Origin: a virus
Taxonomy: Duplodnaviria > Heunggongvirae > Uroviricota > Caudoviricetes
Reading direction: 5' to 3' (one strand)
Length of the DNA stretch: 9,984 bases
Virus record (IMG/VR): IMGVR_UViG_2740892442_000016
Positions 1 to 9,519 of the stretch are shown here, one piece after another (the stretch's first letter is position 1; every line of letters begins with the position of its first letter). Under the pieces are notes generated by a model that saw only the letters and a program-made list of their open reading frames with translations, did no database searches and was not told the DNA's origin. A program made the translations under genes and the position numbers.

Positions 1-600
1 ATGCAAATTGGCTATATTCGTGTGTCAACAAACGACCAGAACACGGATTTACAACGCAATGCACTGAACTGCGCAGGATGTGAACTGATTTTTGAAGATA
101 AAATCAGCGGAACGAAATCAACCAGACCGGGATTGAAAAAACTGCTCAGAACGCTATCAGAAGGAGATACGCTGGTTGTCTGGAAGCTGGACAGACTGGG
201 CAGAAGTATGAAACACCTGATCACGCTTATTGAGGAATTGCGGGAAAAAGGTGTTAATTTCCGTAGTCTGACGGACAGCATTGACACGTCAACACCCATG
301 GGGCGTTTCTTTTTTCACGTCATGGGGGCTTTAGCCGAAATGGAACGTGAATTAATTGTAGAACGTACACTGGCCGGGCTGGCAGCAGCACGCGCACAAG
401 GACGCATTGGCGGACGTCGCCCGAAGTTGACAAAAGAACAACACGAGCAAATAGCAAGGCTGATTAAAAACGGTCATGACAGGAAACAACTGGCGATCAT
501 TTACGACATCGGCATATCGACGATTTATCGTTATCACCCTGTAGGCGATATACAGGCTGAAGCAACAACCAGGCAGACTCAGGAAAATGAAAACCGCTAA
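1..600 (+). CDS. Serine recombinase, DNA invertase of the Hin/Gin/Pin/Cin family
   Basis: 199-aa ORF starting MQIGYIRVSTNDQNTDLQRNAL with the catalytic-serine N-terminus, the GDTLVVWKLDRLGRS and MGRFFFHVMGALAEMERELI blocks and a C-terminal helix-turn-helix (GRIGGRRPKLTKEQHEQI), all matching my recollection of Hin/Pin. Confidence 0.9.
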   Translation: MQIGYIRVSTNDQNTDLQRNALNCAGCELIFEDKISGTKSTRPGLKKLLRTLSEGDTLVVWKLDRLGRSMKHLITLIEELREKGVNFRSLTDSIDTSTPMGRFFFHVMGALAEMERELIVERTLAGLAAARAQGRIGGRRPKLTKEQHEQIARLIKNGHDRKQLAIIYDIGISTIYRYHPVGDIQAEATTRQTQENENR

Positions 601-619
601 TCTGACCATTAGCGGTTTT
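590..619. terminator. Perfect 11-bp inverted repeat (AAAACCGCTAA / TTAGCGGTTTT) with 8-nt loop between the convergent invertase and U genes; likely bidirectional terminator
   Basis: Seen directly: stem 590-600 and 609-619, loop 601-608; A-run before and T-run after. The invertase stop codon lies in the left arm. Confidence 0.45.
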
Positions 620-626
620 GCGTTAA

Positions 627-1121
627 TCAAAACAGCCCTTTAACGGAGCTGACCGCGCTGTTAAGGGATGATGTGACCTTATCTTTGAAGCCGGACAGCA
701 TATCACTGAACGATGAGGATTGCAGGCGCTCCCGCAAATCCTCATCACAGCGTTCAAGGGTCAGTGAAAATTCTATCTTTTTCGCCTTACCGTAGCGATC
801 AAACTCGGAACGGGTCGTATTCGTTTCGGTCAGGACATACATGCCGTAAATCTGCCCGACACCATCAATCAGAGGCCAGGGGCGTCCTGTATATGCCTGC
901 GTGGTCAGCAACGAAAGCGACACTTCGCCACCTGTAATTTCAGGATAAAGCACGCCTGAAAGCACGATGCGATCATCACCTGCACCGATATACTGCCAGC
1001 TTGCTGAACGGTTAACGCGTTCATTTTTCACATGCCGCCAGCTTTTGCTTTGCTGTAACTGCTGATGCGGCAACGTGCGCAGCTCAAAAACAAACATGCC
1101 GTAGATCATCATCATGGCCAT
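627..1121 (-). CDS. U: Phage tail protein U (P2 gpU / Mu N-like)
   Basis: 164-aa ORF directly after the tape measure gene (T stop 1128-1130, U ATG 1121-1119, GAGGAG RBS inside the T 3' end); N-terminus MMMIYGMFVFEL...LSGVLYPEITGG resembles gpU as recalled. Confidence 0.8.
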   Translation of the reverse strand: MAMMMIYGMFVFELRTLPHQQLQQSKSWRHVKNERVNRSASWQYIGAGDDRIVLSGVLYPEITGGEVSLSLLTTQAYTGRPWPLIDGVGQIYGMYVLTETNTTRSEFDRYGKAKKIEFSLTLERCDEDLRERLQSSSFSDMLSGFKDKVTSSLNSAVSSVKGLF

Positions 1122-1127
1122 GACTCC

Positions 1128-4049
1128 TCAATCTTTATCGTAAAAACTGCCACGCCCGGCACGGGCGCGCCGTTCCATTTCTGCCCTGACCATTTCACCG
1201 ACCAGTTTCGCCAGTTCGCGGGGATTCTGCGTAACAACGTTATGCAGATGAACATGAATTTCACCACCAAATCCGGAGGCAACAGGCTCCCGGTTACGGG
1301 AAGTTACAGGAACTGATGCCACTGGCGATCGTATGGCCTCCGCCACCGGGCGGGAGCTGGCCGCAACAACAGGGACCAGCGCCGGAGGCAGCGGAGCCGG
1401 GACCACGGGTGTGATATTAATTGCGGGGGCAGGCTTACTGACCTGCGCAATCTTCCGCTCCTGCCACTCCCCACCAGGGACCAGCGCCAGAGGCAGCGGA
1501 GCAGGGACCACGGGTGTGATATTAATTGCGGAGGCAGGCTTACTGACCTGCGCAATCTTCCGCTCCTGCCACTCCCCACGAACGGCAAGTGCGCGGGGCA
1601 GGTTCTTAAAGACAATATCACCGGGGCCAATGCGTTTTTTCGTCTCATCAACCAGCTTACCTGTGTTATCAGCAATTTTGCTGAGTCTGCGTAGCGTACC
1701 GGTATTGCTGTCTGTGAGCGGTTTGTTGTCTTTGGGTTTATCGCCTCCGGTGCCATTGCCATTTTCCGCAGACTTCGGCGGATTGATTTTCGCAAGGTCT
1801 CCCTGAAACAGAGCAACCTTGTCCTGAAGAATGGCCGCACGCTGTGCGTCTTCAATTTTCTTGCGCGCCCTTTCCGCTTCATCCGGAAGGACACCAAGTT
1901 TTTCAAGTATCCACGCCAGCGTATCCAGTAGCATTTTTGCAGGTGTCAGAACAAGCTGTAACGCACCGCCAAGAACGTTACCGAATATCTCGCCAGCACT
2001 GGTACATTTATCCAGCGTTTCCTTGCTGGACTCCATCGGTGACAGCAGCGATTTAAACCAGTTAAAGACCTGAATAATCCCATCGCGCACGACATCAAAA
2101 ACAGGACCGAACCGTTCAAAGGTTTCGCGCAACGGAGCCAGTCGTTCCATAATCCCGTTGAACACCCCGATATAAAACGCCTTGATGGGTTCCCAGTATT
2201 TCCAGATGAGAACTGCCGCAGCCACAAACGCGGCAACAATCAATCCGACCGGACTGAACAGCGCCCCGATAGCGCCACCCAGCAACGAGATGGAACCTGT
2301 TACCATTCCCCATAGTGCTGGCAGCACCCTGACGACATTCATTGATCCTGTCAGGAGAGAAAAACCGAGACGTAACGTAGCCAGCTTCCCGTGAAGCACC
2401 CCAATAACCAGAGACAACGAACCAACCGTTGCTGTTGTCGCCAGCAGTGCGCCTCCCGCTATCAGTAACTGGCGCGTCAGTACCGGATGGGCCTGCGCCA
2501 GCGCCGTCACCTTTGAGACCACCCGCGTGAGCCACTGCGTGACAGAACGCAGCGGACCGTCAATCAGATCTGCAATGCGGATGCGCAACCCTTCCCATGC
2601 ACTGCCGAGTGATTTCAGATCGCCATCAAGGTTGTTGGCCATAACCTTTGCCGTGCGTTCAGCCTCACCGCGTGCGCCCTCAAGTTCTTTTCTCAGTTTG
2701 GGTAAGGAACCGTCACCCGCCGCATCAACGAGTGCCATAAACGATGTGAAAGCCTCTTCCCCGGCGATGTCCTTAAAGAAGGATACCCGGTCAACTTCCC
2801 CGTATTTGCGGGTAGCTTTATAAAGGTCAGCCAGCAGATCTTCCATCGGGCGCATTTTGCCCCCGGCATCCGAGACGGACACGCCCAGCTCTTTCAGAGC
2901 TTCTGCCGCCGCCTTTGGCGGTGATGCCAGACGAGCCAGGCTGGCACGCATTGCCGTCCCGGCATCACTCCCTCTGATGCCCATATTCGCCAGCACGCCC
3001 GCCATCGCTGCGGCCTGCTCCAGCGATATCCCCAGCTTACCCGCCACCGGACCGGCATATTTCATGGTTTCGCCCAGTGCGCGAAGGTCAGTGTTGGTAC
3101 GGGTAAACGCTGCGGTGAGTGTGTCTCCGACCCGGTCCATCTGGTCAGCAGAAAGGCCGAACTGCGTCAGGATATTTGAGCCAATATCTGCCGTCTCGCC
3201 GAGATCCATACCGCCAGCCGTTGCCATGCTCAGTACGCCGGGAAGCGCAGCCTGAATGGCCTGCGGAGTGAAGCCTGCCATTGCAAGAAATGCCTGCCCA
3301 CTGGCGGCATCGCCTGCGGTGAACTGCGTTTCAGAGCCAAGTTTTAACGCCTGCTCACGCAGCGCCTTAAACTGCGGGCTGTTTTTGTCGATTCGCGTCA
3401 GTGCCTGAACGCGGGACATCTCTTTCCCGAACCCGATCGCAGGCTGCAAAAAACGCCCGGCAGCATAGCCGCCAGCCGCTGCCGCACCAATTGCCAGCGC
3501 ACCACCTGTTTTCAGTTTTCCTGCTGTTTCCTGCGCGCGCGAATACCGCTCACGCGCACGCGTTACACGCGCAAGCGCCTGCCGTTCGCGTTCAAGCTGA
3601 TTGTTGTACTGTTCGGTGCGTCTGATAGCCTGCTGGATGGTGTTATCGCTGCCTGTCAGGGAAATGCCGTGGCGTTTCAGCTCTCCGCCAAGCTCCCGCA
3701 TTTTCTGAATTTCCCGTGTGCGCGATTCATTCAGGCGTTCAAGCCGGGTGCTTAACTGCTGCATCAGCTTTTGTTGTTTTTCGCTGAGCACTGTACCCGT
3801 GCGTTGTAACTGATTAAGGGCGTTAAGCTGGCGTCGTGCTTTCACGATGCCAGCATCCGCTTTACTGACAGCGTCACGGGCGCGCTCAAATGAACGCGCC
3901 TGACGCTCGAGATTTTTGATCGCCCCCTGCGTTCGCTGGATGGAGTCACCAAACTGCCCCATCAGACGGCGGGCGTTTTCGGCAGGCCGGGTCAGCCTGT
4001 CAACGGCGCTGAAAGCGACCCGGATATCAAGAGTCTTCATTGTCTGCAT
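1128..4049 (-). CDS. T: Tail tape measure protein (P2 gpT-like)
   Basis: Long ORF, about 970-980 aa, with coiled-coil-like N-terminal part, Ala/Gly-rich hydrophobic middle and a Pro-rich C-terminal part; sits between E/E' and U. Start uncertain: ATG at 4049 or 4040, or GTG at 4076; the E+E' product overlaps the start as in P2. Confidence 0.85.
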   Translation of the reverse strand: MQTMKTLDIRVAFSAVDRLTRPAENARRLMGQFGDSIQRTQGAIKNLERQARSFERARDAVSKADAGIVKARRQLNALNQLQRTGTVLSEKQQKLMQQLSTRLERLNESRTREIQKMRELGGELKRHGISLTGSDNTIQQAIRRTEQYNNQLERERQALARVTRARERYSRAQETAGKLKTGGALAIGAAAAGGYAAGRFLQPAIGFGKEMSRVQALTRIDKNSPQFKALREQALKLGSETQFTAGDAASGQAFLAMAGFTPQAIQAALPGVLSMATAGGMDLGETADIGSNILTQFGLSADQMDRVGDTLTAAFTRTNTDLRALGETMKYAGPVAGKLGISLEQAAAMAGVLANMGIRGSDAGTAMRASLARLASPPKAAAEALKELGVSVSDAGGKMRPMEDLLADLYKATRKYGEVDRVSFFKDIAGEEAFTSFMALVDAAGDGSLPKLRKELEGARGEAERTAKVMANNLDGDLKSLGSAWEGLRIRIADLIDGPLRSVTQWLTRVVSKVTALAQAHPVLTRQLLIAGGALLATTATVGSLSLVIGVLHGKLATLRLGFSLLTGSMNVVRVLPALWGMVTGSISLLGGAIGALFSPVGLIVAAFVAAAVLIWKYWEPIKAFYIGVFNGIMERLAPLRETFERFGPVFDVVRDGIIQVFNWFKSLLSPMESSKETLDKCTSAGEIFGNVLGGALQLVLTPAKMLLDTLAWILEKLGVLPDEAERARKKIEDAQRAAILQDKVALFQGDLAKINPPKSAENGNGTGGDKPKDNKPLTDSNTGTLRRLSKIADNTGKLVDETKKRIGPGDIVFKNLPRALAVRGEWQERKIAQVSKPASAINITPVVPAPLPLALVPGGEWQERKIAQVSKPAPAINITPVVPAPLPPALVPVVAASSRPVAEAIRSPVASVPVTSRNREPVASGFGGEIHVHLHNVVTQNPRELAKLVGEMVRAEMERRARAGRGSFYDKD
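1371..1580. repeat. In-frame 105-bp tandem duplication (2 copies, 4 mismatches) inside the tape measure gene
   Basis: Copy 1 at 1371-1475 and copy 2 at 1476-1580 align base by base; they encode a repeated 35-aa unit GEWQERKIAQVSKPA(S/P)AINITPVVPAPLP(L/P)ALVP. Confidence 0.9.
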
Positions 4050-4556
4050 TCCCGCTGCGAAGTGCCGCCCGCTCACGCCAGCTAACCACTTCGCCGGGCG
4101 TCATCATGAAGATTTCGGCGGGCGACCAGTTAAAAATAACGGCAATATCTGCCACAAAGTCTTCTATGTGCTCAAAGCACACAACCGTGATCAGGCTTCC
4201 GTCGCCTGTTCGTTCTTCCCGCCAGAGTCCGCACCGCTCAAAAAATTTACGGCAACCACACATAACTGAATAAAGTCACGGGATGCCATTTTTTTGATCG
4301 TCACTTCATCCAGTCGCGGTGATGTCACGCGTGACAGCAGCGTAAACATGGATTCCGCTTTCAGATTCAGCACATCAGACAACGACAAATCTCGCAGAGA
4401 TCCAGCCTGCTCAATAGCTCCGGTGATCTCCACATACGTGATTTTTTCGCCGCCTCGCTCAATTGGTTGGGTAAGTTTTACGCCACGCTCACTGGTTTCT
4501 TTCACAGTGTCAGTAACTACCGTGTTTTCGGTATCGATGTTTTTCGTCTCTTTCAT
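4027..4556 (-). CDS. E+E': E+E' fusion made by programmed -1 ribosomal frameshift at 4245-4239; about 176 aa, overlapping the start of T
   Basis: Minus-strand heptamer T_TTT_TTG is in the E zero frame (codons AAT TTT TTG = N F L). The -1 frame is open from 4275 to the stop at 4029-4027 and reads KFFERCG... after the slip. Confidence 0.65.
4191..4556 (-). CDS. E: Tail assembly chaperone (P2 gpE-like), zero-frame product
   Basis: 121-aa ORF between FII and T with AAAGGAG RBS 8 nt upstream of the ATG at 4556; contains the slippery heptamer near its 3' end. Confidence 0.7.
   Translation of the reverse strand: MKETKNIDTENTVVTDTVKETSERGVKLTQPIERGGEKITYVEITGAIEQAGSLRDLSLSDVLNLKAESMFTLLSRVTSPRLDEVTIKKMASRDFIQLCVVAVNFLSGADSGGKNEQATEA
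4239..4245 (-). other. Slippery heptamer TTTTTTG for the E/E' -1 frameshift
   Basis: Seen in sequence; it is the same heptamer I recall for the P2 E/E' frameshift site. Confidence 0.6.
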
Positions 4557-4610
4557 CAGGAAACTCCTTTCAGTCAGAGGCGACGCACTGCGCCGCCTGC
4601 ATATTACTTA

Positions 4611-5123
4611 TCAGCCAAGCCCAAGCGCGGAACGGATACGGTCAGGCACAATGTCCTTGCCGTCCTTCCGGTAAATGAAGTTCAGCAGGTCAATCTCCCA
4701 CAACGGGCGATCGTTAACACTCAGCTTGTAGTAGGTGTTTTTAATGGCGTAAGTGTGTGATGTGGCTTCGCCCTGTTTGGCTTCCCCCATATCAATTTCC
4801 GTCACACGTCCGCGCATTTCGACTTCATACAGGTCGCTTTCTGCATCGGTGTAGTATTCACCCGCAAAACGCAGCAGCGTGCCGTCAATCGTGCCGCCAT
4901 ACTTAAGGAACAGCTCACGAACTGCGCCCCCCATGACAAAGCTCGCATCAAGCGCGGAGTCGTCCAGACCGAGATCAATACTTACCGCACCCATCATGCC
5001 ACCACCCCGGTAGCTGTCGGTTTTGCGCGTCAGTTTAGGCAGAGTGACGGACGTCACCTTACCCACTTCGTTTTCACCATCCACAAACAGCGTAAAAAAG
5101 CGAAGATGTTTTGGTACAGCCAT
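4611..5123 (-). CDS. FII: Major tail tube protein (P2 gpFII-like)
   Basis: 170-aa ORF starting MAVPKHLRFFTLFVDG...VTSVTLPKLTRK; its ATG overlaps the sheath stop in a TGATG junction at 5121-5125. Confidence 0.85.
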   Translation of the reverse strand: MAVPKHLRFFTLFVDGENEVGKVTSVTLPKLTRKTDSYRGGGMMGAVSIDLGLDDSALDASFVMGGAVRELFLKYGGTIDGTLLRFAGEYYTDAESDLYEVEMRGRVTEIDMGEAKQGEATSHTYAIKNTYYKLSVNDRPLWEIDLLNFIYRKDGKDIVPDRIRSALGLG

Positions 5124-6306
5124 CAGGCACCTCCCAGCACCGCAAATGCGGGACCAAAGAATTCATCAGTAAACGACTGGTAAAGCTCCATGTCTTCCAG
5201 CGGGGGAACTGGCGTATATTTGTAGCGAATACGCACACGTCCCTGACGTAAACCCGTGGTGCTGTTATCCACCACGTCATACCAGCACTCCGCGCCAATC
5301 AGTTTCCCGGCAGTAACCAGTGAATCCAGTTTTGCCCTGATGGCACTGATAACATCCTTCACGTTCGCAGGCGTCAGTGGACTGTCGATGGTTTCAAACT
5401 GCGCTTCCGCAATTGAATCAGCCAGCACCTGTGCGGTTCGGGTATACACCTCAAAGATGTAGGCGTTCGTTTCCGGTGTGCGGTTGCCCCAGAAGCGGAA
5501 CCCGTTACGACGAATAATGGTCGTGATTTCTTTGTTGTTAAGGCTGTTGGCATCGCTGTCTTCGGCCTGCAACGACCAGAACACATGCCGGGACATCCCC
5601 AGCACATTTTTAACCGGAACGTTGGACAGTGATTTGTGCCAGCCCTGCTCATGGTCAATGTACGCACGAAGGCCGCACGCATAAGCAGGCGCGGGGAACG
5701 TTTCGTTTTTGCCACTTTTCGGGTTGTAGGCGATGAAGTCCGGCCATAAGAGCATCACCTCACGTTCGTTGAATTTCTGGCGGTAGGTAATTGCCTCTGC
5801 CATCGTGTTACAGCCATGACATGAGGCATACACAAACGCGCGCAGTTTACCCGCAATCACGCACAGGGATTTTGTCACCGCCTCCGTGTCCAGCTCCGGC
5901 GCGGCCAGAATACGCGGACGGTATCCGATGCTTTCATCCTGCTCTGCAACAAGCAGCGCATACATCCCCGTATAGCTGCCGTCAGATTCAGAACCACCGA
6001 TAACCAGTTGATCCTGCGTCTTTCCGTTTTCTTCTTTGTGTTCAGCCACGCGAACGACGATCACCTTTGTGCTCACCTGGTCTGCGATGGCCTTAAGCGC
6101 ACGATAAAGCGTCCCCGTTGTCCCGCATTTTCCCAGCACGTCATTGACGCGGGTCAGCAGTGTGGCTTGTTCAGCGGGAACAGCTTCGCGTCCGCATCAT
6201 CCGCCGTTGCCACGATACCGATAACGCTGGAATCAACATCGTTAATCGCTGTTACCAGGTCGGTACTTTCCGTAACACGGGCACCATGAAAACGAGTTTC
6301 ACTCAT
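5123..6306 (-). CDS. FI: Tail sheath protein (P2 gpFI-like), interrupted by an apparent 1-nt frameshift near 6157-6165; possible pseudogene or sequencing error
   Basis: ATG at 6306 gives MSETRFHGARVTE...DADAKLFPLNKPHC then TGA at 6156-6154. The rest of the sheath (LLTRVNDVLGKCGTTGTLYRALKAIADQ... to the stop at 5123) continues in another frame that opens after 6196. Combined length of about 393 codons matches a full sheath. Confidence 0.8.
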
Positions 6307-6463
6307 AGCTTCAGCCCCTTGTATCCGTTAAATGATTCGGCAACAATCATCACCCACCACGCGCGTAATCTCACCCCTGCGCCGTTCTCCCGCCACGGCG
6401 ACAACAAAAAGCAGTAACCCCCTCCGCACGCACATGCGACCATGCCGCACAGGGAGGGAGCAG

Positions 6464-7573
6464 ATGACCGACACCACCATGCAATTGCTCAGTCAGGGCA
6501 CAGACACCGTGAAAATGCCGGATTTTGATATTCTCGCGGAGGGTAAAACGCTGTCAGGCGTGGCAGAGCGCCTGATGAGCCTGTCACTGACCGACAACCG
6601 GGGATTTGAGGCGGACCAGCTCACCATCACGCTGGATGATGCGGATGGTCAGTTGCAGCTACCGCCACGGGGCGCGCGCCTGACGGTTCTCATTGGCTGG
6701 AAGGGAGAACCGCTGACAGAAAAAGGCACTTACATTGTTGATGAAATCGCTCACGAAGGACCGCCGGACAGGCTGACTGTTTCAGCCAGAAGCGCAGATT
6801 TTCGGGATGAATTTAACGTTAAACGTGAGGTGTCCTGGCATGATGTGACCGTTGAGCGTGTGGTATCCGCCATCGCTCATCGGTATGGTCTGAAACCGCA
6901 AATCAGCGAAATGCTGATGGATATCGAAATCGACCACGCCGACCAGACCGAAGAAAGCGACATGTCCTTCCTTACGCGCATGGCGGAAATGCTGGGCGCA
7001 ATCACCACGGTAAAAAGCGGCAATCTGTTATTCATCATGCCAGGTGGTGGCGTGAACGCACAGGGCCAGCCGTTGCCCTCGTTCGCCATTACACGCAGCA
7101 GCGGCGATCGCCATCAGTTCCGCATTGCTGACCGCGAGGCGTATACGGGGGTACGCGCCTACTGGCTTGATCTTAATTACGGGAAAAAGAAAAAAGTCAG
7201 CGTGAAACGCCGTAAACCGCCAAAACCCAAAAAGGAGAAAAGCAGCAGCCGTGAAGGTGATTATATGGAAGGCGCGGAAGGCAATGTGTTTGTGTTACGC
7301 AAGACTTATCAGAACGAGCAGGCAGCAAGACGCGCAGCGGCGGCAAAGTGGCAGCAGCTACAACGCGGAGCCGCATCATTCTCCATCACGCTGGCATGTG
7401 GTCGTGCAGAACTCTACCCCGAAATGCATGGCACGGTAACAGGATTTAAAAGCGAGATTGATAATCAGGACTGGATTATTGCAAAAGCCGAGCACACCAT
7501 CGATAACAGCGGCTTTACCACGCAGCTTGAGCTTGAGGCAAAAATCTCGGAATGGATAGCAGAAACAGAGTGA
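6464..7573 (+). CDS. D: Phage tail protein D (P2 gpD / late control D family)
   Basis: ORF with AGGGAGGGAG RBS at 6451-6460 and ATG at 6464. Motifs SLTDNRGFEADQL, SARSADFRDEF, ESDMSFLTRMAE and YTGVRAYW fit the gpD family as recalled. The open frame runs upstream to 6332 but has no RBS there. Confidence 0.85.
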   Translation: MTDTTMQLLSQGTDTVKMPDFDILAEGKTLSGVAERLMSLSLTDNRGFEADQLTITLDDADGQLQLPPRGARLTVLIGWKGEPLTEKGTYIVDEIAHEGPPDRLTVSARSADFRDEFNVKREVSWHDVTVERVVSAIAHRYGLKPQISEMLMDIEIDHADQTEESDMSFLTRMAEMLGAITTVKSGNLLFIMPGGGVNAQGQPLPSFAITRSSGDRHQFRIADREAYTGVRAYWLDLNYGKKKKVSVKRRKPPKPKKEKSSSREGDYMEGAEGNVFVLRKTYQNEQAARRAAAAKWQQLQRGAASFSITLACGRAELYPEMHGTVTGFKSEIDNQDWIIAKAEHTIDNSGFTTQLELEAKISEWIAETE

Positions 7574-7615
7574 GCAACTTAGAATAGCAGCAGCACCACG
7601 TTAAGGGAGGTCGCT

Positions 7616-7876
7616 ATGTTCCGTTGTCCGCTTTGTGGCGCATCTGCCCGTATCCGCACCAGTCGTCCTGAAAATGATTCAAACACCGTGCGGCAAAAGT
7701 ATTACCAGTGTAACAACCTGGAATGCGGCGTATGCTTCTCAACACTGGAAGCTTTCCATAAATTCACATCAAAACACGCCTCCGGCGTTCACTCTTCAGA
7801 AGGTATCCCGTGGCATGAGCTGCCAGCTTCACACAGGGGAAACAATCAGATGAGTTTGCCTTTACCTCAGAATTAA
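7616..7876 (+). CDS. ogr: Ogr-type zinc-finger late transcription activator
   Basis: Starts MFRCPLCGASARIRTSR...YYQCNNLEC, giving the C-X2-C-X23-C-X4-C finger; AAGGGAGG RBS 5 nt upstream. At 86 aa it has a C-terminal extension relative to P2 Ogr (about 72 aa). Confidence 0.85.
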   Translation: MFRCPLCGASARIRTSRPENDSNTVRQKYYQCNNLECGVCFSTLEAFHKFTSKHASGVHSSEGIPWHELPASHRGNNQMSLPLPQN

Positions 7877-7885
7877 CAGGCAGAA

Positions 7886-7914
7886 TTGCCGGAGTAACAA
7901 AAAAGCGATAGATT
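7886..7914 (+). promoter_or_regulatory. Candidate sigma70 promoter for the toxin mRNA (TTGCCG, 17-bp spacer, TAGATT)
   Basis: Seen in sequence just after the ogr stop. It would place the transcript start near 7921, giving a leader of about 147 nt before the toxin ATG. Confidence 0.3.
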
Positions 7915-8067
7915 ACGCGCGGGTGCCTTTCGGCTGATGGTCGGAGGGAATACCCGAAGGCCAGATGTGGAAAGGCCCCGGAAAACATTTCTGTTTAACC
8001 GAGGCCCTAACATATCTACCTTAAGCAAGTGATAGGTTAGCGCCTCTCCAACAAAGGAGCAAGCGCT

Positions 8068-8208
8068 ATGTCGCAAAAATCGCTTACGGCCATCACGTTC
8101 TGCGTGACGGTAATCCTCATCATCTGGATGCTACACGGTTCGCTGTGTGAAATACGGATGAGCTTCTGGGGAGCGGAGTTTGCGGCGTTCTTACAGTGTA
8201 AGCAGTAA
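8068..8208 (+). CDS. Hok/Gef/PndA-family type I toxin (46 aa, single transmembrane helix)
   Basis: MSQKSLTAITFCVTVILIIWMLHGSLCEIRMSFWGAEFAAFLQCKQ: hydrophobic N-terminal helix followed by the SLCEIR and E-x-AAF-L-x-C-K motifs I recall from Hok and PndA; AAAGGAG RBS 8 nt upstream. Below the 60-aa cutoff of the ORF track. Confidence 0.65.
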   Translation: MSQKSLTAITFCVTVILIIWMLHGSLCEIRMSFWGAEFAAFLQCKQ

Positions 8209-8217
8209 GGAAACCGC

Positions 8218-8239
8218 GACGGGGGAGCAATCCCCCGTC
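8218..8239 (+). other. Stable stem-loop (9-bp GC-rich stem, GCAA tetraloop) directly after the toxin stop codon
   Basis: GACGGGGGA-GCAA-TCCCCCGTC seen in sequence; no U-tract follows, so it is more likely an mRNA structural element than a terminator. Confidence 0.4.
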
Positions 8240-8296
8240 AATCGGTTGCTAAGGTTGGCTGAAGTGGCACCCTATCTCACAGACATGAACAACAAA

Positions 8297-8328
8297 CCCG
8301 CAGCGTAAGAACTGCGGGTTTTCTTTTT
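8297..8328 (+). terminator. Rho-independent terminator (CCCGCAG stem, 8-nt loop, TTTTCTTTTT tail)
   Basis: Seen in sequence; would end the toxin transcript at a total length of roughly 400 nt. Confidence 0.6.
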
Positions 8329-8336
8329 GGAACTAT

Positions 8337-8364
8337 CACTAGCTAGTGTACCGTTAACGGCACA
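8337..8364. promoter_or_regulatory. Two overlapping palindromes: CACTAGCTAGTG (perfect 12-mer) and TGTaCCGTTAACGGcACA (matches the TGT-N12-ACA dyad)
   Basis: Seen in sequence. TGT-N12-ACA is the dyad I recall for Ogr/Delta-type late activators; no clear -10 element is placed correctly on either side, so function is unassigned. Confidence 0.3.
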
Positions 8365-8396
8365 TAATGCTCGCACAACAAACCTGTTAAAAGAGA

Positions 8397-8678
8397 TTAC
8401 TCAGCATTCTCCTGCTTCCATTGCCGGATCATTTCATCGGTAACATCACCCTCATAACATACCACGTCATACCCTCCATTACGGCTATATGCACTGCGTC
8501 CACCACATCTACTACCATTCCTTGCATGATTATAAGGACACGCACAATTGCCTGGATAAGATTCAATGGATTCTTTAATTATTTCTTTTTTGATCTGAGC
8601 ATCAGACTTTCCTGTTGCTGCATATCCGCTAAAAGATACTAAACAAAGGCAGATTGCCATTAATAAACCACATCGCAT
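8397..8678 (-). CDS. Hypothetical small secreted Cys-containing protein in an AT-rich cargo segment
   Basis: The ORF is open to 8792, but the likely start is the Met at 8678 that begins a signal-peptide-like stretch (MRCGLLMAICLCLVSFSGYAA, A-A before TGK). The mature part is about 70 aa with four Cys (GNCACPYNHARNGSRCGGRSAYSRNGGYDVVCYEG). Weak RBS; local AT content is clearly higher than in the flanking phage genes. Family not recognised. Confidence 0.45.
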   Translation of the reverse strand: MRCGLLMAICLCLVSFSGYAATGKSDAQIKKEIIKESIESYPGNCACPYNHARNGSRCGGRSAYSRNGGYDVVCYEGDVTDEMIRQWKQENAE

Positions 8679-8910
8679 ACCGATACACTCTATTACTAAC
8701 CAATCATAGTCCACATCATAAAATCGAGATGAGGAGTACAATACCTTTAACAAGAAGGTGTCATAACGATAATATGTCGTGCAATTCATCAAAAAAAAGA
8801 TCTATATCAAAGAGATAGAACTCTTATCAGTGCTTCAGACATCGGCATTCGAGGCAGCAGAAAAACAGTAAATTTGACGAATTTGCCTTTTCCCAAGATG
8901 TTGTCAGATT

Positions 8911-9064
8911 AAAAAGATAGATTAGCGCAGGTACCTGTTGGTGGATTGCAGGAGGAAAAATGAAGTCGAGTGGAAAAATCCCAGAAAAATTTTTGTTTAA
9001 CAGAGGTCCTGGTTCACTATGCGAAATACGGAGGAGCTGCAGAAGAATTCTGCTTCATCCTTAG
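8911..9064 (+). pseudogene. Internally deleted paralog of the toxin locus (promoter -10, leader and toxin C-terminal segment retained; toxin transmembrane region missing)
   Basis: 8911-8935 resembles 7900-7927 (AAAAAG..ATAGATTA..GCGCAGGTACC), 8970-9010 resembles 7967-8008, and 9011-9042 resembles 8137-8170; the 128 bp between the last two in the intact copy (8009-8136) are absent. The remaining ORF (ATG 8960, stop 9062-9064) reads MKSSGKIPEKFLFNRGPGSLCEIRRSCRRILLHP. Confidence 0.45.
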
Positions 9065-9140
9065 AGTTTAAACAGCACGTGCACTACCATTGTTTCTGCA
9101 TATCGCCACACCATCGCCACTCAACCGCCATTGCACAAAA

Positions 9141-9173
9141 TACAAATACAAAAAAACCACCCGAAGGTGGTTT
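9141..9173 (-). terminator. Rho-independent terminator of the glyW-cysT-leuZ tRNA operon
   Basis: Plus-strand ACCACC-CGAA-GGTGGT hairpin (9156-9171); on the minus strand it is followed by TTTTTGTATTTG, about 45 nt past the leuZ 3' end. Confidence 0.6.
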
Positions 9174-9216
9174 CACGACACTGCTTATTGCTTTGATTTT
9201 ATTCTTATCTTTCCCA

Positions 9217-9303
9217 TGGTACCCGGAGCGGGACTTGAACCCGCACAGCGCGAACGCCGAGGGATTTTAAATCCCTTGTGTCTACCGATTCCACCATCCG
9301 GGC
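9217..9303 (-). tRNA. leuZ: tRNA-Leu (anticodon UAA), 87 nt, CCA encoded
   Basis: Reverse complement reads GCCCGGATGGTGGAATCGGTAGACACAAGGGATTTAAAATCCC...GGGTACCA: cloverleaf with long variable arm, matching E. coli leuZ as recalled. Confidence 0.92.
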
Positions 9304-9315
9304 TCGGGAAGAAAG

Positions 9316-9389
9316 TGGAGGCGCGTTCCGGAGTCGAACCGGACTAGACGGATTTGCAATCCGCTACATAACCGCTTTGTTAACGCGCC
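9316..9389 (-). tRNA. cysT: tRNA-Cys (anticodon GCA), 74 nt
   Basis: Reverse complement reads GGCGCGTTAACAAAGCGGTTATGTAGCGGATTGCAAATCCGTCTAGTCCGGTTCGACTCCGGAACGCGCCTCCA. Confidence 0.92.
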
Positions 9390-9442
9390 AAATTCTTCAG
9401 GCCTTTCAGCCAGACATCCGCTGACGCCGATGTCTTTTAAAC

Positions 9443-9519
<77 letters not shown>

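Follow-up and report, generated by a model that had tools for sequence, protein, structure and literature searches.

What is the small AT-rich open reading frame that lies between the late-gene activator gene ogr and the leuZ tRNA attachment site at the right end of a P2-like prophage, and what could its product do for the lysogen? We addressed this question in a stretch of 9,984 nucleotides of Caudoviricetes DNA (IMG/VR record IMGVR_UViG_2740892442_000016; hereafter, the window). A first-pass annotation, made from the letters alone, had proposed that an ORF at 8397-8792 was horizontally acquired cargo for a small secreted, cysteine-containing protein, bracketed by two copies of a toxin locus. 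Our analysis favors, with a probability of roughly 60%, the reading that the gene is a moron of P2-like prophages and that its product is a binding module, exported by Sec and stabilised by disulfides in the periplasm.

The window comes from an E. coli chromosome, and its bases 1-8330 form the right arm of a prophage of P2-like (P88/Xuanwuvirus) type, with genes for a Hin-type invertase, a tail protein, the tape measure, gpE, tube, sheath, gpD, ogr and hok/sok. The last conserved phage gene ahead of the cargo region is ogr; on the host side lie leuZ, cysT and glyW (9217-9518, minus strand), with pgsA next. The features concerned are as follows.

7616-7876, plus strand: ogr/Delta late-gene activator (Pfam Ogr_Delta, E = 5e-14; annotation).
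7921-8208, plus strand: type I toxin-antitoxin locus hok/sok, intact and facing the four-Cys ORF in convergent orientation (hok CDS, 8068-8208).
8294-8321: GC-rich hairpin between the convergent hok and four-Cys ORF, resembling a terminator on either strand but followed by a good T-tail on the plus strand alone.
8397-8678, minus strand: CDS for the precursor of a small, predicted exported four-Cys protein, 93 aa (MRCGLLMAICLCLVSFSGYAATGK...QENAE, stop; ORF list, PGAP and homologues).
8619-8678, minus strand: predicted Sec signal peptide, residues 1-20/21 (n-region MR, core CGLLMAICLCLVSF, c-region SGYA/A).
8400-8618, minus strand: mature domain, 72-73 aa (alignment A1; AF2 model).
8679-8792, minus strand: in-frame upstream extension of the mechanical ORF, 37 codons.
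8865-9060, plus strand: decayed ogr 3' end, hok/sok leader and Hok C-terminal fragment (repeat families D1, D2 and D6; pairwise alignment).
9146-9250, no strand assigned: attR core, a 105-bp direct repeat (k-mer comparison, K-12 alignment and tRNAs).

The intact hok gene matched Pfam HOK_GEF (E = 3.7e-7), with an NCBIfam HokA-like match below the cut-off, and sok matched its Rfam model at 7921-8078 (47.9 bits, against a gathering score of 59). Homology to K-12 (alignment with its yecA-leuZ region) starts near 9148 with 3'ETS-leuZ, the terminator of leuZ, and the 105-bp att repeat is made up of this 3'ETS-leuZ and the final 34 nt of leuZ. The second copy of the repeat directly adjoins the prophage integrase, about 36 kb off (genome NZ_CP184045.1), and k-mer comparison found no further att-core copy within 8250-9145. 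Because copies of the att core occur only at 9146-9250 and beside the integrase, the att-bounded element includes the four-Cys gene, which occupies the interval from hok/sok to attP. A location of the ORF outside the prophage, in an older remnant, was rejected on the same positions. In isolated P88-type phages (P88, Chuche, 500465-2 and others), similarity to the window stops at 8330, up to which the identity is 95-99%; the corresponding slot of P88 holds an unrelated 80-aa minus-strand ORF, and a tblastn search with the 93-aa protein against 50,697 phage records returned no match. The GC content is 0.41 in the CDS and 0.40 in the segment 8335-9145, compared with 0.54 in the phage genes (1-7600) and 0.51 in host DNA. 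Judged by these sequence comparisons, the gene, which is RefSeq WP_001303543.1, is a moron of a P2-like prophage integrated at leuZ, and the earlier proposal of AT-rich, horizontally acquired cargo between ogr and the tRNA site was well founded.

The attachment site has a feature of its own. In K-12 annotation, 3'ETS-leuZ is a sponge sRNA and terminator, all of which is included in the 105-bp att core, and a partial second copy of att/3'ETS-leuZ lies at attL, beside the integrase (L008, about 14650-14860). Since the core spans both 3'ETS-leuZ and the end of leuZ, the phage has its own copy of 3'ETS-leuZ and rebuilds leuZ at integration.

The bracketing by two toxin loci stood only in part: the first copy is an intact hok/sok locus, but the second (8865-9060) is a relic about 72% identical to it (71.6% across the aligned part). 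This relic begins with a remnant of the ogr 3' end (NLTNLPFPKM, versus NQMSLPLPQN followed by a stop), has an internal deletion, and retains of Hok only a 'GSLCEIR' piece; conservation among E. coli alleles is lower here (82.8%) than in the rest of the segment. By alignment, 8865-9060 reads as a recombination scar with another P2-like right end, and such an ogr'-hok' relic makes the right end of this prophage a recombinant. In Salmonella prophages integrated at this site, a tandem pair of intact hok genes takes its place (L091).

Several further observations were made in the window and in related prophages. The Hin/Gin/Cin-type serine invertase gene at 1-600 adjoins genes for tail fibre and tail-fibre assembly (seen in L001), an arrangement that suggests inversion of a host-range segment in this P2-like prophage. 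Within the tape-measure gene, a perfect-frame tandem repeat (1370-1579; 105 bp x 2, 97% identical) doubles a 35-aa segment (GEWQERKIAQVSKPA.AINITPVVPAPLP.ALVP); tail length is normally set by the length of the tape measure. The gpD frame (6332-7573) is open for 413 aa and a 369-aa Phage_GPD was called in L090, whereas RefSeq has only an 801-nt 'VgrG/Pvc8 family' CDS and a 93-nt pseudogene fragment (L001, L002); the short call probably arose as an artefact of how the start of gene D was annotated. A closely related prophage in E. coli strain H3 (L007, 451-2366) has SIR2-family and TIR-domain genes, a Thoeris-like pair, between gpD and ogr, a position absent from the P2 defence hotspots in PMC9122126 and PMC13586616. 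An S8 peptidase and AAA ATPase pair lies between the portal gene and parM/gpA in the prophage of the window itself, at a place beyond the window (L008, 1760-5043), at the classical P2 old/tin hotspot, and a plasmid-type ParM/partition pair is also found there (L008).

The N-terminus of the 93-aa product has the features of an export signal, with MR followed by 14 hydrophobic residues as the core (Kyte-Doolittle mean of the best 10-aa stretch, 3.26) and, at G-Y-A/A, a rule-based cleavage call that agrees with the -3/-1 rule. An equivalent signal-like N-terminus occurs in 104 of 106 family members, though the sequence there is not conserved. Read directly, the sequence contains no lipobox, cysteines 3, 10 and 12 being preceded by M-R, A-I and C-L, and a lipoprotein processed by SPase II was rejected for want of an [LVI][ASTVI][GAS]C motif. 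We infer that the product is exported by Sec, cleaved after residue 20 or 21, and resides in the periplasm, where it would fold as a small two-helix domain. The mature protein (8.1 kDa; pI about 5.8) is mildly acidic and consists of a helix (26-40), a Cys-rich loop (YPGNCxCPYN...NGSxCGxRSAYSR.GG...C) and an acidic, charged C-terminal helix (81-91). Both helices were confident in the AF2 model (pLDDT 78.5; pTM 0.63). Its four cysteines (C45, C47, C58 and C74) are all invariant, and belong to 13 invariant columns in 106 sequences that also comprise S37, Y41, P48, G55, G59, R61, S62, A63 and G69. The loop CGGRSAYSRxGG, rich in Gly, is where the invariant polar residues gather, and a putative anion-binding site would be compatible with this. 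Thus, the first-pass description of a Sec signal peptide followed by a short four-Cys mature domain with a charged C-terminus agrees with these features.

The family to which the protein belongs is very large. A search by word index retrieved 235 homologues (E reaching 1e-22 to 1e-57), and a full profile search of 1.84 billion representatives recovered 2307 clusters at 50% identity with E <= 1e-3, 1477 of them with E <= 1e-10. In a scan of one genome per species, at least 369 loci were distributed across Gamma-, Beta- and Alphaproteobacteria, Cyanobacteria/Melainabacteria, Geobacter relatives and Omnitrophota. Members also occur on 125 plasmids (e.g., Xanthomonas = 36; Pantoea = 30), and 189 viral contigs in IMG/VR encode relatives. 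Outside Enterobacteriaceae the family is mostly chromosomal, and its role therefore need not be phage-related. Most members are 85-130 aa long and stand alone, with the consensus of a signal peptide followed by SDAQIKQxIIxESIxSYPGNCPCPYNxARNGSRCGGRSAYSRxGGYxPxCYxxDVTxEM. A conserved-operon reading was dropped after all-against-all ORF clustering of 80 genome loci, in which no neighbour was common across taxa, and the gene is therefore a stand-alone one. On about 30 IMG/VR prophage contigs (L142, 3974-4267), where the predicted prophages span 43-52 kb, a 48%-identical member was seen some 1.3 kb short of the prophage end, flanked by a UmuD-like gene and a gene for a transthyretin-like (HiuH-type) periplasmic protein; this member may be host flank instead of phage cargo.

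That no family could be assigned, as stated earlier, is consistent with our searches, yet the protein is no orphan. None of the 106 members exceeded a Pfam gathering threshold; the window protein had no match in the NCBIfam scan and none among PADLOC models (0 families at E <= 1); and sequence and profile searches of the PDB returned nothing for the protein or the family, nor did searches of PDB and BFVD yield structural neighbours. A likeness to Sclerostin (18 bits, cut-off 27) and a TGF-beta mimic was attributed to chance, being below threshold and confined to one of the 106 members. In phage protein clusters, PHROG 27544 matched end to end (E = 7.2e-58; residues 13-93 versus profile positions 1-81 of 81), and phrog_14503 ('membrane associated protein', moron category) and phrog_3117 matched the core motif (residues 37-70, E about 1e-6); all three are automatic clusters without an attached function. 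Databases thus already list the gene, under the name hypothetical protein and as PHROG 27544, and its existence is not new. A description of the family or domain was not found in Pfam, NCBIfam, PADLOC, the PDB or the literature searched by accession WP_001303543.1 and by the family motif.

The company that the domain keeps offers clues to its role. Among the best 150 matches, 44 longer members contained partner domains, including SH3_3 (12), SH3_4 (7), PG_binding_1 (3), PG_binding_2 (1), SNase (3, in either order), TonB_C (1) and GmrSD_C (1), and one of them also had, by eye, an Excalibur-like segment. Almost every one of these partners is extracytoplasmic, many of them being secreted nucleases or modules that bind the cell wall. 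Five members (P0121, P0122, P0124, P0147 and P0235) contain the domain as a tandem duplication. Since the partners are nearly all extracytoplasmic or cell-wall-associated, and the domain also occurs in tandem copies, it would most likely bind a ligand associated with the cell envelope or cell wall, probably an anionic one, rather than act as an enzyme. The evidence for a binding module is the domain partners themselves, in 44 of the best 150 matches, and within this set the SNase and GmrSD_C partners count against a cell-wall ligand and point to nucleic acid. The mild acidity of the mature protein also speaks against the favored reading. A comparison with Excalibur, bacterial SH3 and PG_binding_1 domains is instructive: the four-Cys domain likewise occurs alone, in tandem or fused in either order (SNase, GmrSD_C, SH3_3, PG_binding_1 and TonB_C), and differs from them in its invariant four-Cys pattern and the absence of a Pfam match in 106 members. 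By this analogy, the domain seems to behave as a promiscuous periplasmic or extracellular binding or targeting module, which in a lysogen would confer a trait at the level of the envelope.

The same fusions to SH3/PG_binding modules and secreted nucleases would also suit a protective periplasmic mini-protein that excludes superinfecting phages by inhibiting incoming muralytic or nuclease activity. By analogy with T4 Spackle and the periplasmic lysozyme inhibitors, the activity that it blocks might be that of a tail lysozyme from a phage, of a T6SS or colicin effector, or of the host's lysozyme. The accessory slot is kept across divergent P2-like prophages, and in size and export signal the four-Cys protein resembles periplasmic exclusion proteins such as T4 Sp. 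However, exclusion gains no structural or PADLOC support, and similarity in sequence or fold to solved members of T4 Spackle, Ivy, MliC/PliC or PliG was not encountered. The known P2-like slots, old/tin (gpA-gpQ) and Z/fun (tail genes), are alike in placing variable cargo in a conserved P2-type genome, but the cargo at ogr-att is a single exported mini-protein with no defence system recognisable by PADLOC, and the ogr-att slot is absent from the P2 defence hotspots described in PMC9122126 and PMC13586616. We therefore regard an exclusion factor as unlikely, though the best placed of the alternatives. A more general likeness is to the classical morons (lambda Bor/Lom, T5 Llp, phi80/N15 Cor and T4 Spackle), which share a small, exported, non-essential product, a variable slot near the prophage end between conserved phage genes, and a deviant base composition. 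They have no likeness to the four-Cys protein in sequence or fold, and the latter is not a lipoprotein and has a family far wider outside phages.

The cysteines themselves raise another reading, in which the CxC (mostly CPC) motif is functional and the domain is a periplasmic redox-active or Cu/Zn-binding module, with a structural role for the remaining two cysteines or a place in a Cys4 site. In its favor, the C-x-C...C...C pattern does not vary and has the consensus CPCPY, and CPC/CxC motifs are redox-active or metal-binding in Mia40, Hsp33 and metallothioneins. Against this reading, no fold or sequence match to such proteins was found, no metal- or redox-related neighbours are conserved, and Cys4 metal sites are unusual in the oxidising periplasm. 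Short phage relatives bear on the same point. These podophage proteins share the GSRCGGRSAxSRPGG core and a signal peptide with the four-Cys protein, but they are only 53 aa long, lack both flanking helices and keep only two cysteines, spaced like C45 and C58. From this spacing, a CxC cysteine is suggested to pair with C58 in a structural disulfide, which hints at the pairing C45-C58 and C47-C74. The central loops of the binding module would probably be held by two disulfides formed from the four invariant cysteines, and we consider a redox or metal function rather doubtful. In phage TL-2011b (L094, 2453-2614) and other podophages, the 53-aa signal-peptide proteins (…GRCQHDSDTAADGSRCGGRSADSRPGGGGIR) are annotated as 'transmembrane anchored protein' and sit amid immunity-region morons (YafO toxin, Ant and Arc).

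Whichever activity the family has, the E. coli copy might be a silent passenger, that is, H-NS-silenced AT-rich DNA that hitch-hikes with the prophage end. Low GC content, the decayed relic adjoining the gene, a weak Shine-Dalgarno sequence (AGAG only, before the 8678 start) and the lack of a recognisable promoter (no sigma-70 match on the minus strand passed the scan) are in keeping with this, and the last two also count against the favored reading. The distribution of the gene argues otherwise. The CDS was found in 606 of 5426 complete E. coli genomes (about 11%), with the frame intact at >=80% coverage in 581; apart from one match on a plasmid, all are chromosomal. Carriers include O157:H7, O26, O111, O55 and EAEC 55989, and the label is everywhere "hypothetical protein"; the identical protein occurs on at least 1000 contigs, all sources of which call it hypothetical or uncharacterised. 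The whole segment 8335-9147 moves as a unit in 618 genomes and adjoins leuZ in all contexts inspected, including decayed O157:H7 prophages. The ogr-hok module by itself is found in 1550 genomes, and thus only a subset of such phages carries the cargo. A homologue with 68% aa identity occupies the same slot in Salmonella enterica (pgsA - tRNAs - ORF - hok - hok - ogr - gpD), and a 74%-identical one adjoins hok-ogr-gpD-sheath on a metagenomic P2-like contig. An E. coli variant (P0012, 80% identity) lies beside copA at a contig end, a neighbourhood that is an insertion-site coincidence. These divergent alleles (68-80% aa identity), kept in other prophages, retain all the invariant residues. Between E. 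coli alleles, the CDS is 97.2% identical, compared with 82.8% for the neighbouring relic, and its substitutions are skewed towards synonymous changes (dN/dS ~0.15 against the 97%-identical allele, a value from few sites). On such patterns of change the CDS is under purifying selection, and a silent passenger is improbable.

The ORF named in the first-pass annotation does exist as a minus-strand frame at 8397-8792 (131 aa from TTG, or 130 aa from the ATG at 8789), but its coding part is likely only 8397-8678 (93 aa). If the long form were the true product, an uncleaved signal-anchor would hold it in the membrane, with 37 N-terminal residues in the cytoplasm and the Cys domain displayed in the periplasm. 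In its favor, each of the three E. coli alleles inspected keeps the upstream frame open, many of the automated gene calls from metagenomic data give the 130-aa version, and the 'transmembrane anchored protein' label of the related short phage proteins would fit. PGAP, however, picks 93 aa, with exactly this call ("hypothetical protein") in all genomes inspected (L001, L002 and L005). Homologues in other prophages and genera begin at the equivalent M(K/R), as in MRCGLL.., MRVVNLL.. and MKVKFF... The family-wide N-terminus is a classical short signal peptide, and relatives have a GGAG/GAGG Shine-Dalgarno-like motif 8-12 nt 5' of the start Met. No Shine-Dalgarno motif precedes the ATG at 8789. 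The 37-codon extension is different or missing in the closest homologues (P0004, P0012-P0015 and Salmonella), and 4 of its 4 substitutions between E. coli alleles are non-synonymous, versus 3 of 8 in the CDS. The long form is accordingly disfavored, more strongly than a silent passenger, and 8679-8792 is probably a 5' untranslated or promoter region. No Rfam match was found in 8330-9150 for an RNA gene overlapping the ORF; the hairpin at 8294-8321 lies past the stop of the four-Cys CDS, with a poor T-tail on the minus strand. A chance ORF, for which AT-richness and the sole annotation 'hypothetical' are the only arguments, is refuted by conservation, with homologues across phyla (E down to 1e-57), 13 invariant columns and signal-like N-termini in nearly all members, and its probability is negligible; the gene is real.

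A bolder proposal, to which we give only tentative credence, is that the ~65-residue YPGNCxCPYN...GSxCGxRSAYSR.GG...C module adopts a new fold outside the cytoplasm and has a specific activity, for example recognition of an anionic envelope ligand or CPC-based redox or metal chemistry, and that EHEC and Salmonella P2-like prophages have captured it as a lysogenic-conversion or exclusion factor. If true, such a new-fold module would account for >2000 unannotated clusters and for an accessory domain of some secreted nucleases and SH3/PG-binding proteins.

In practical terms, what the analysis yields at present is an exact gene model together with an alignment of the family and an inventory of its domain partners; these make the question testable and are not yet a new mechanism. 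The E. coli gene represents a very large unnamed family of exported four-Cys mini-domains in Proteobacteria, Cyanobacteria, plasmids and prophages, and the structure or ligand of one member would annotate thousands of proteins. For the lysogen, any benefit would come through the envelope-level trait proposed above, and defining the family would show what P2-like prophages gain from their right-end cargo.
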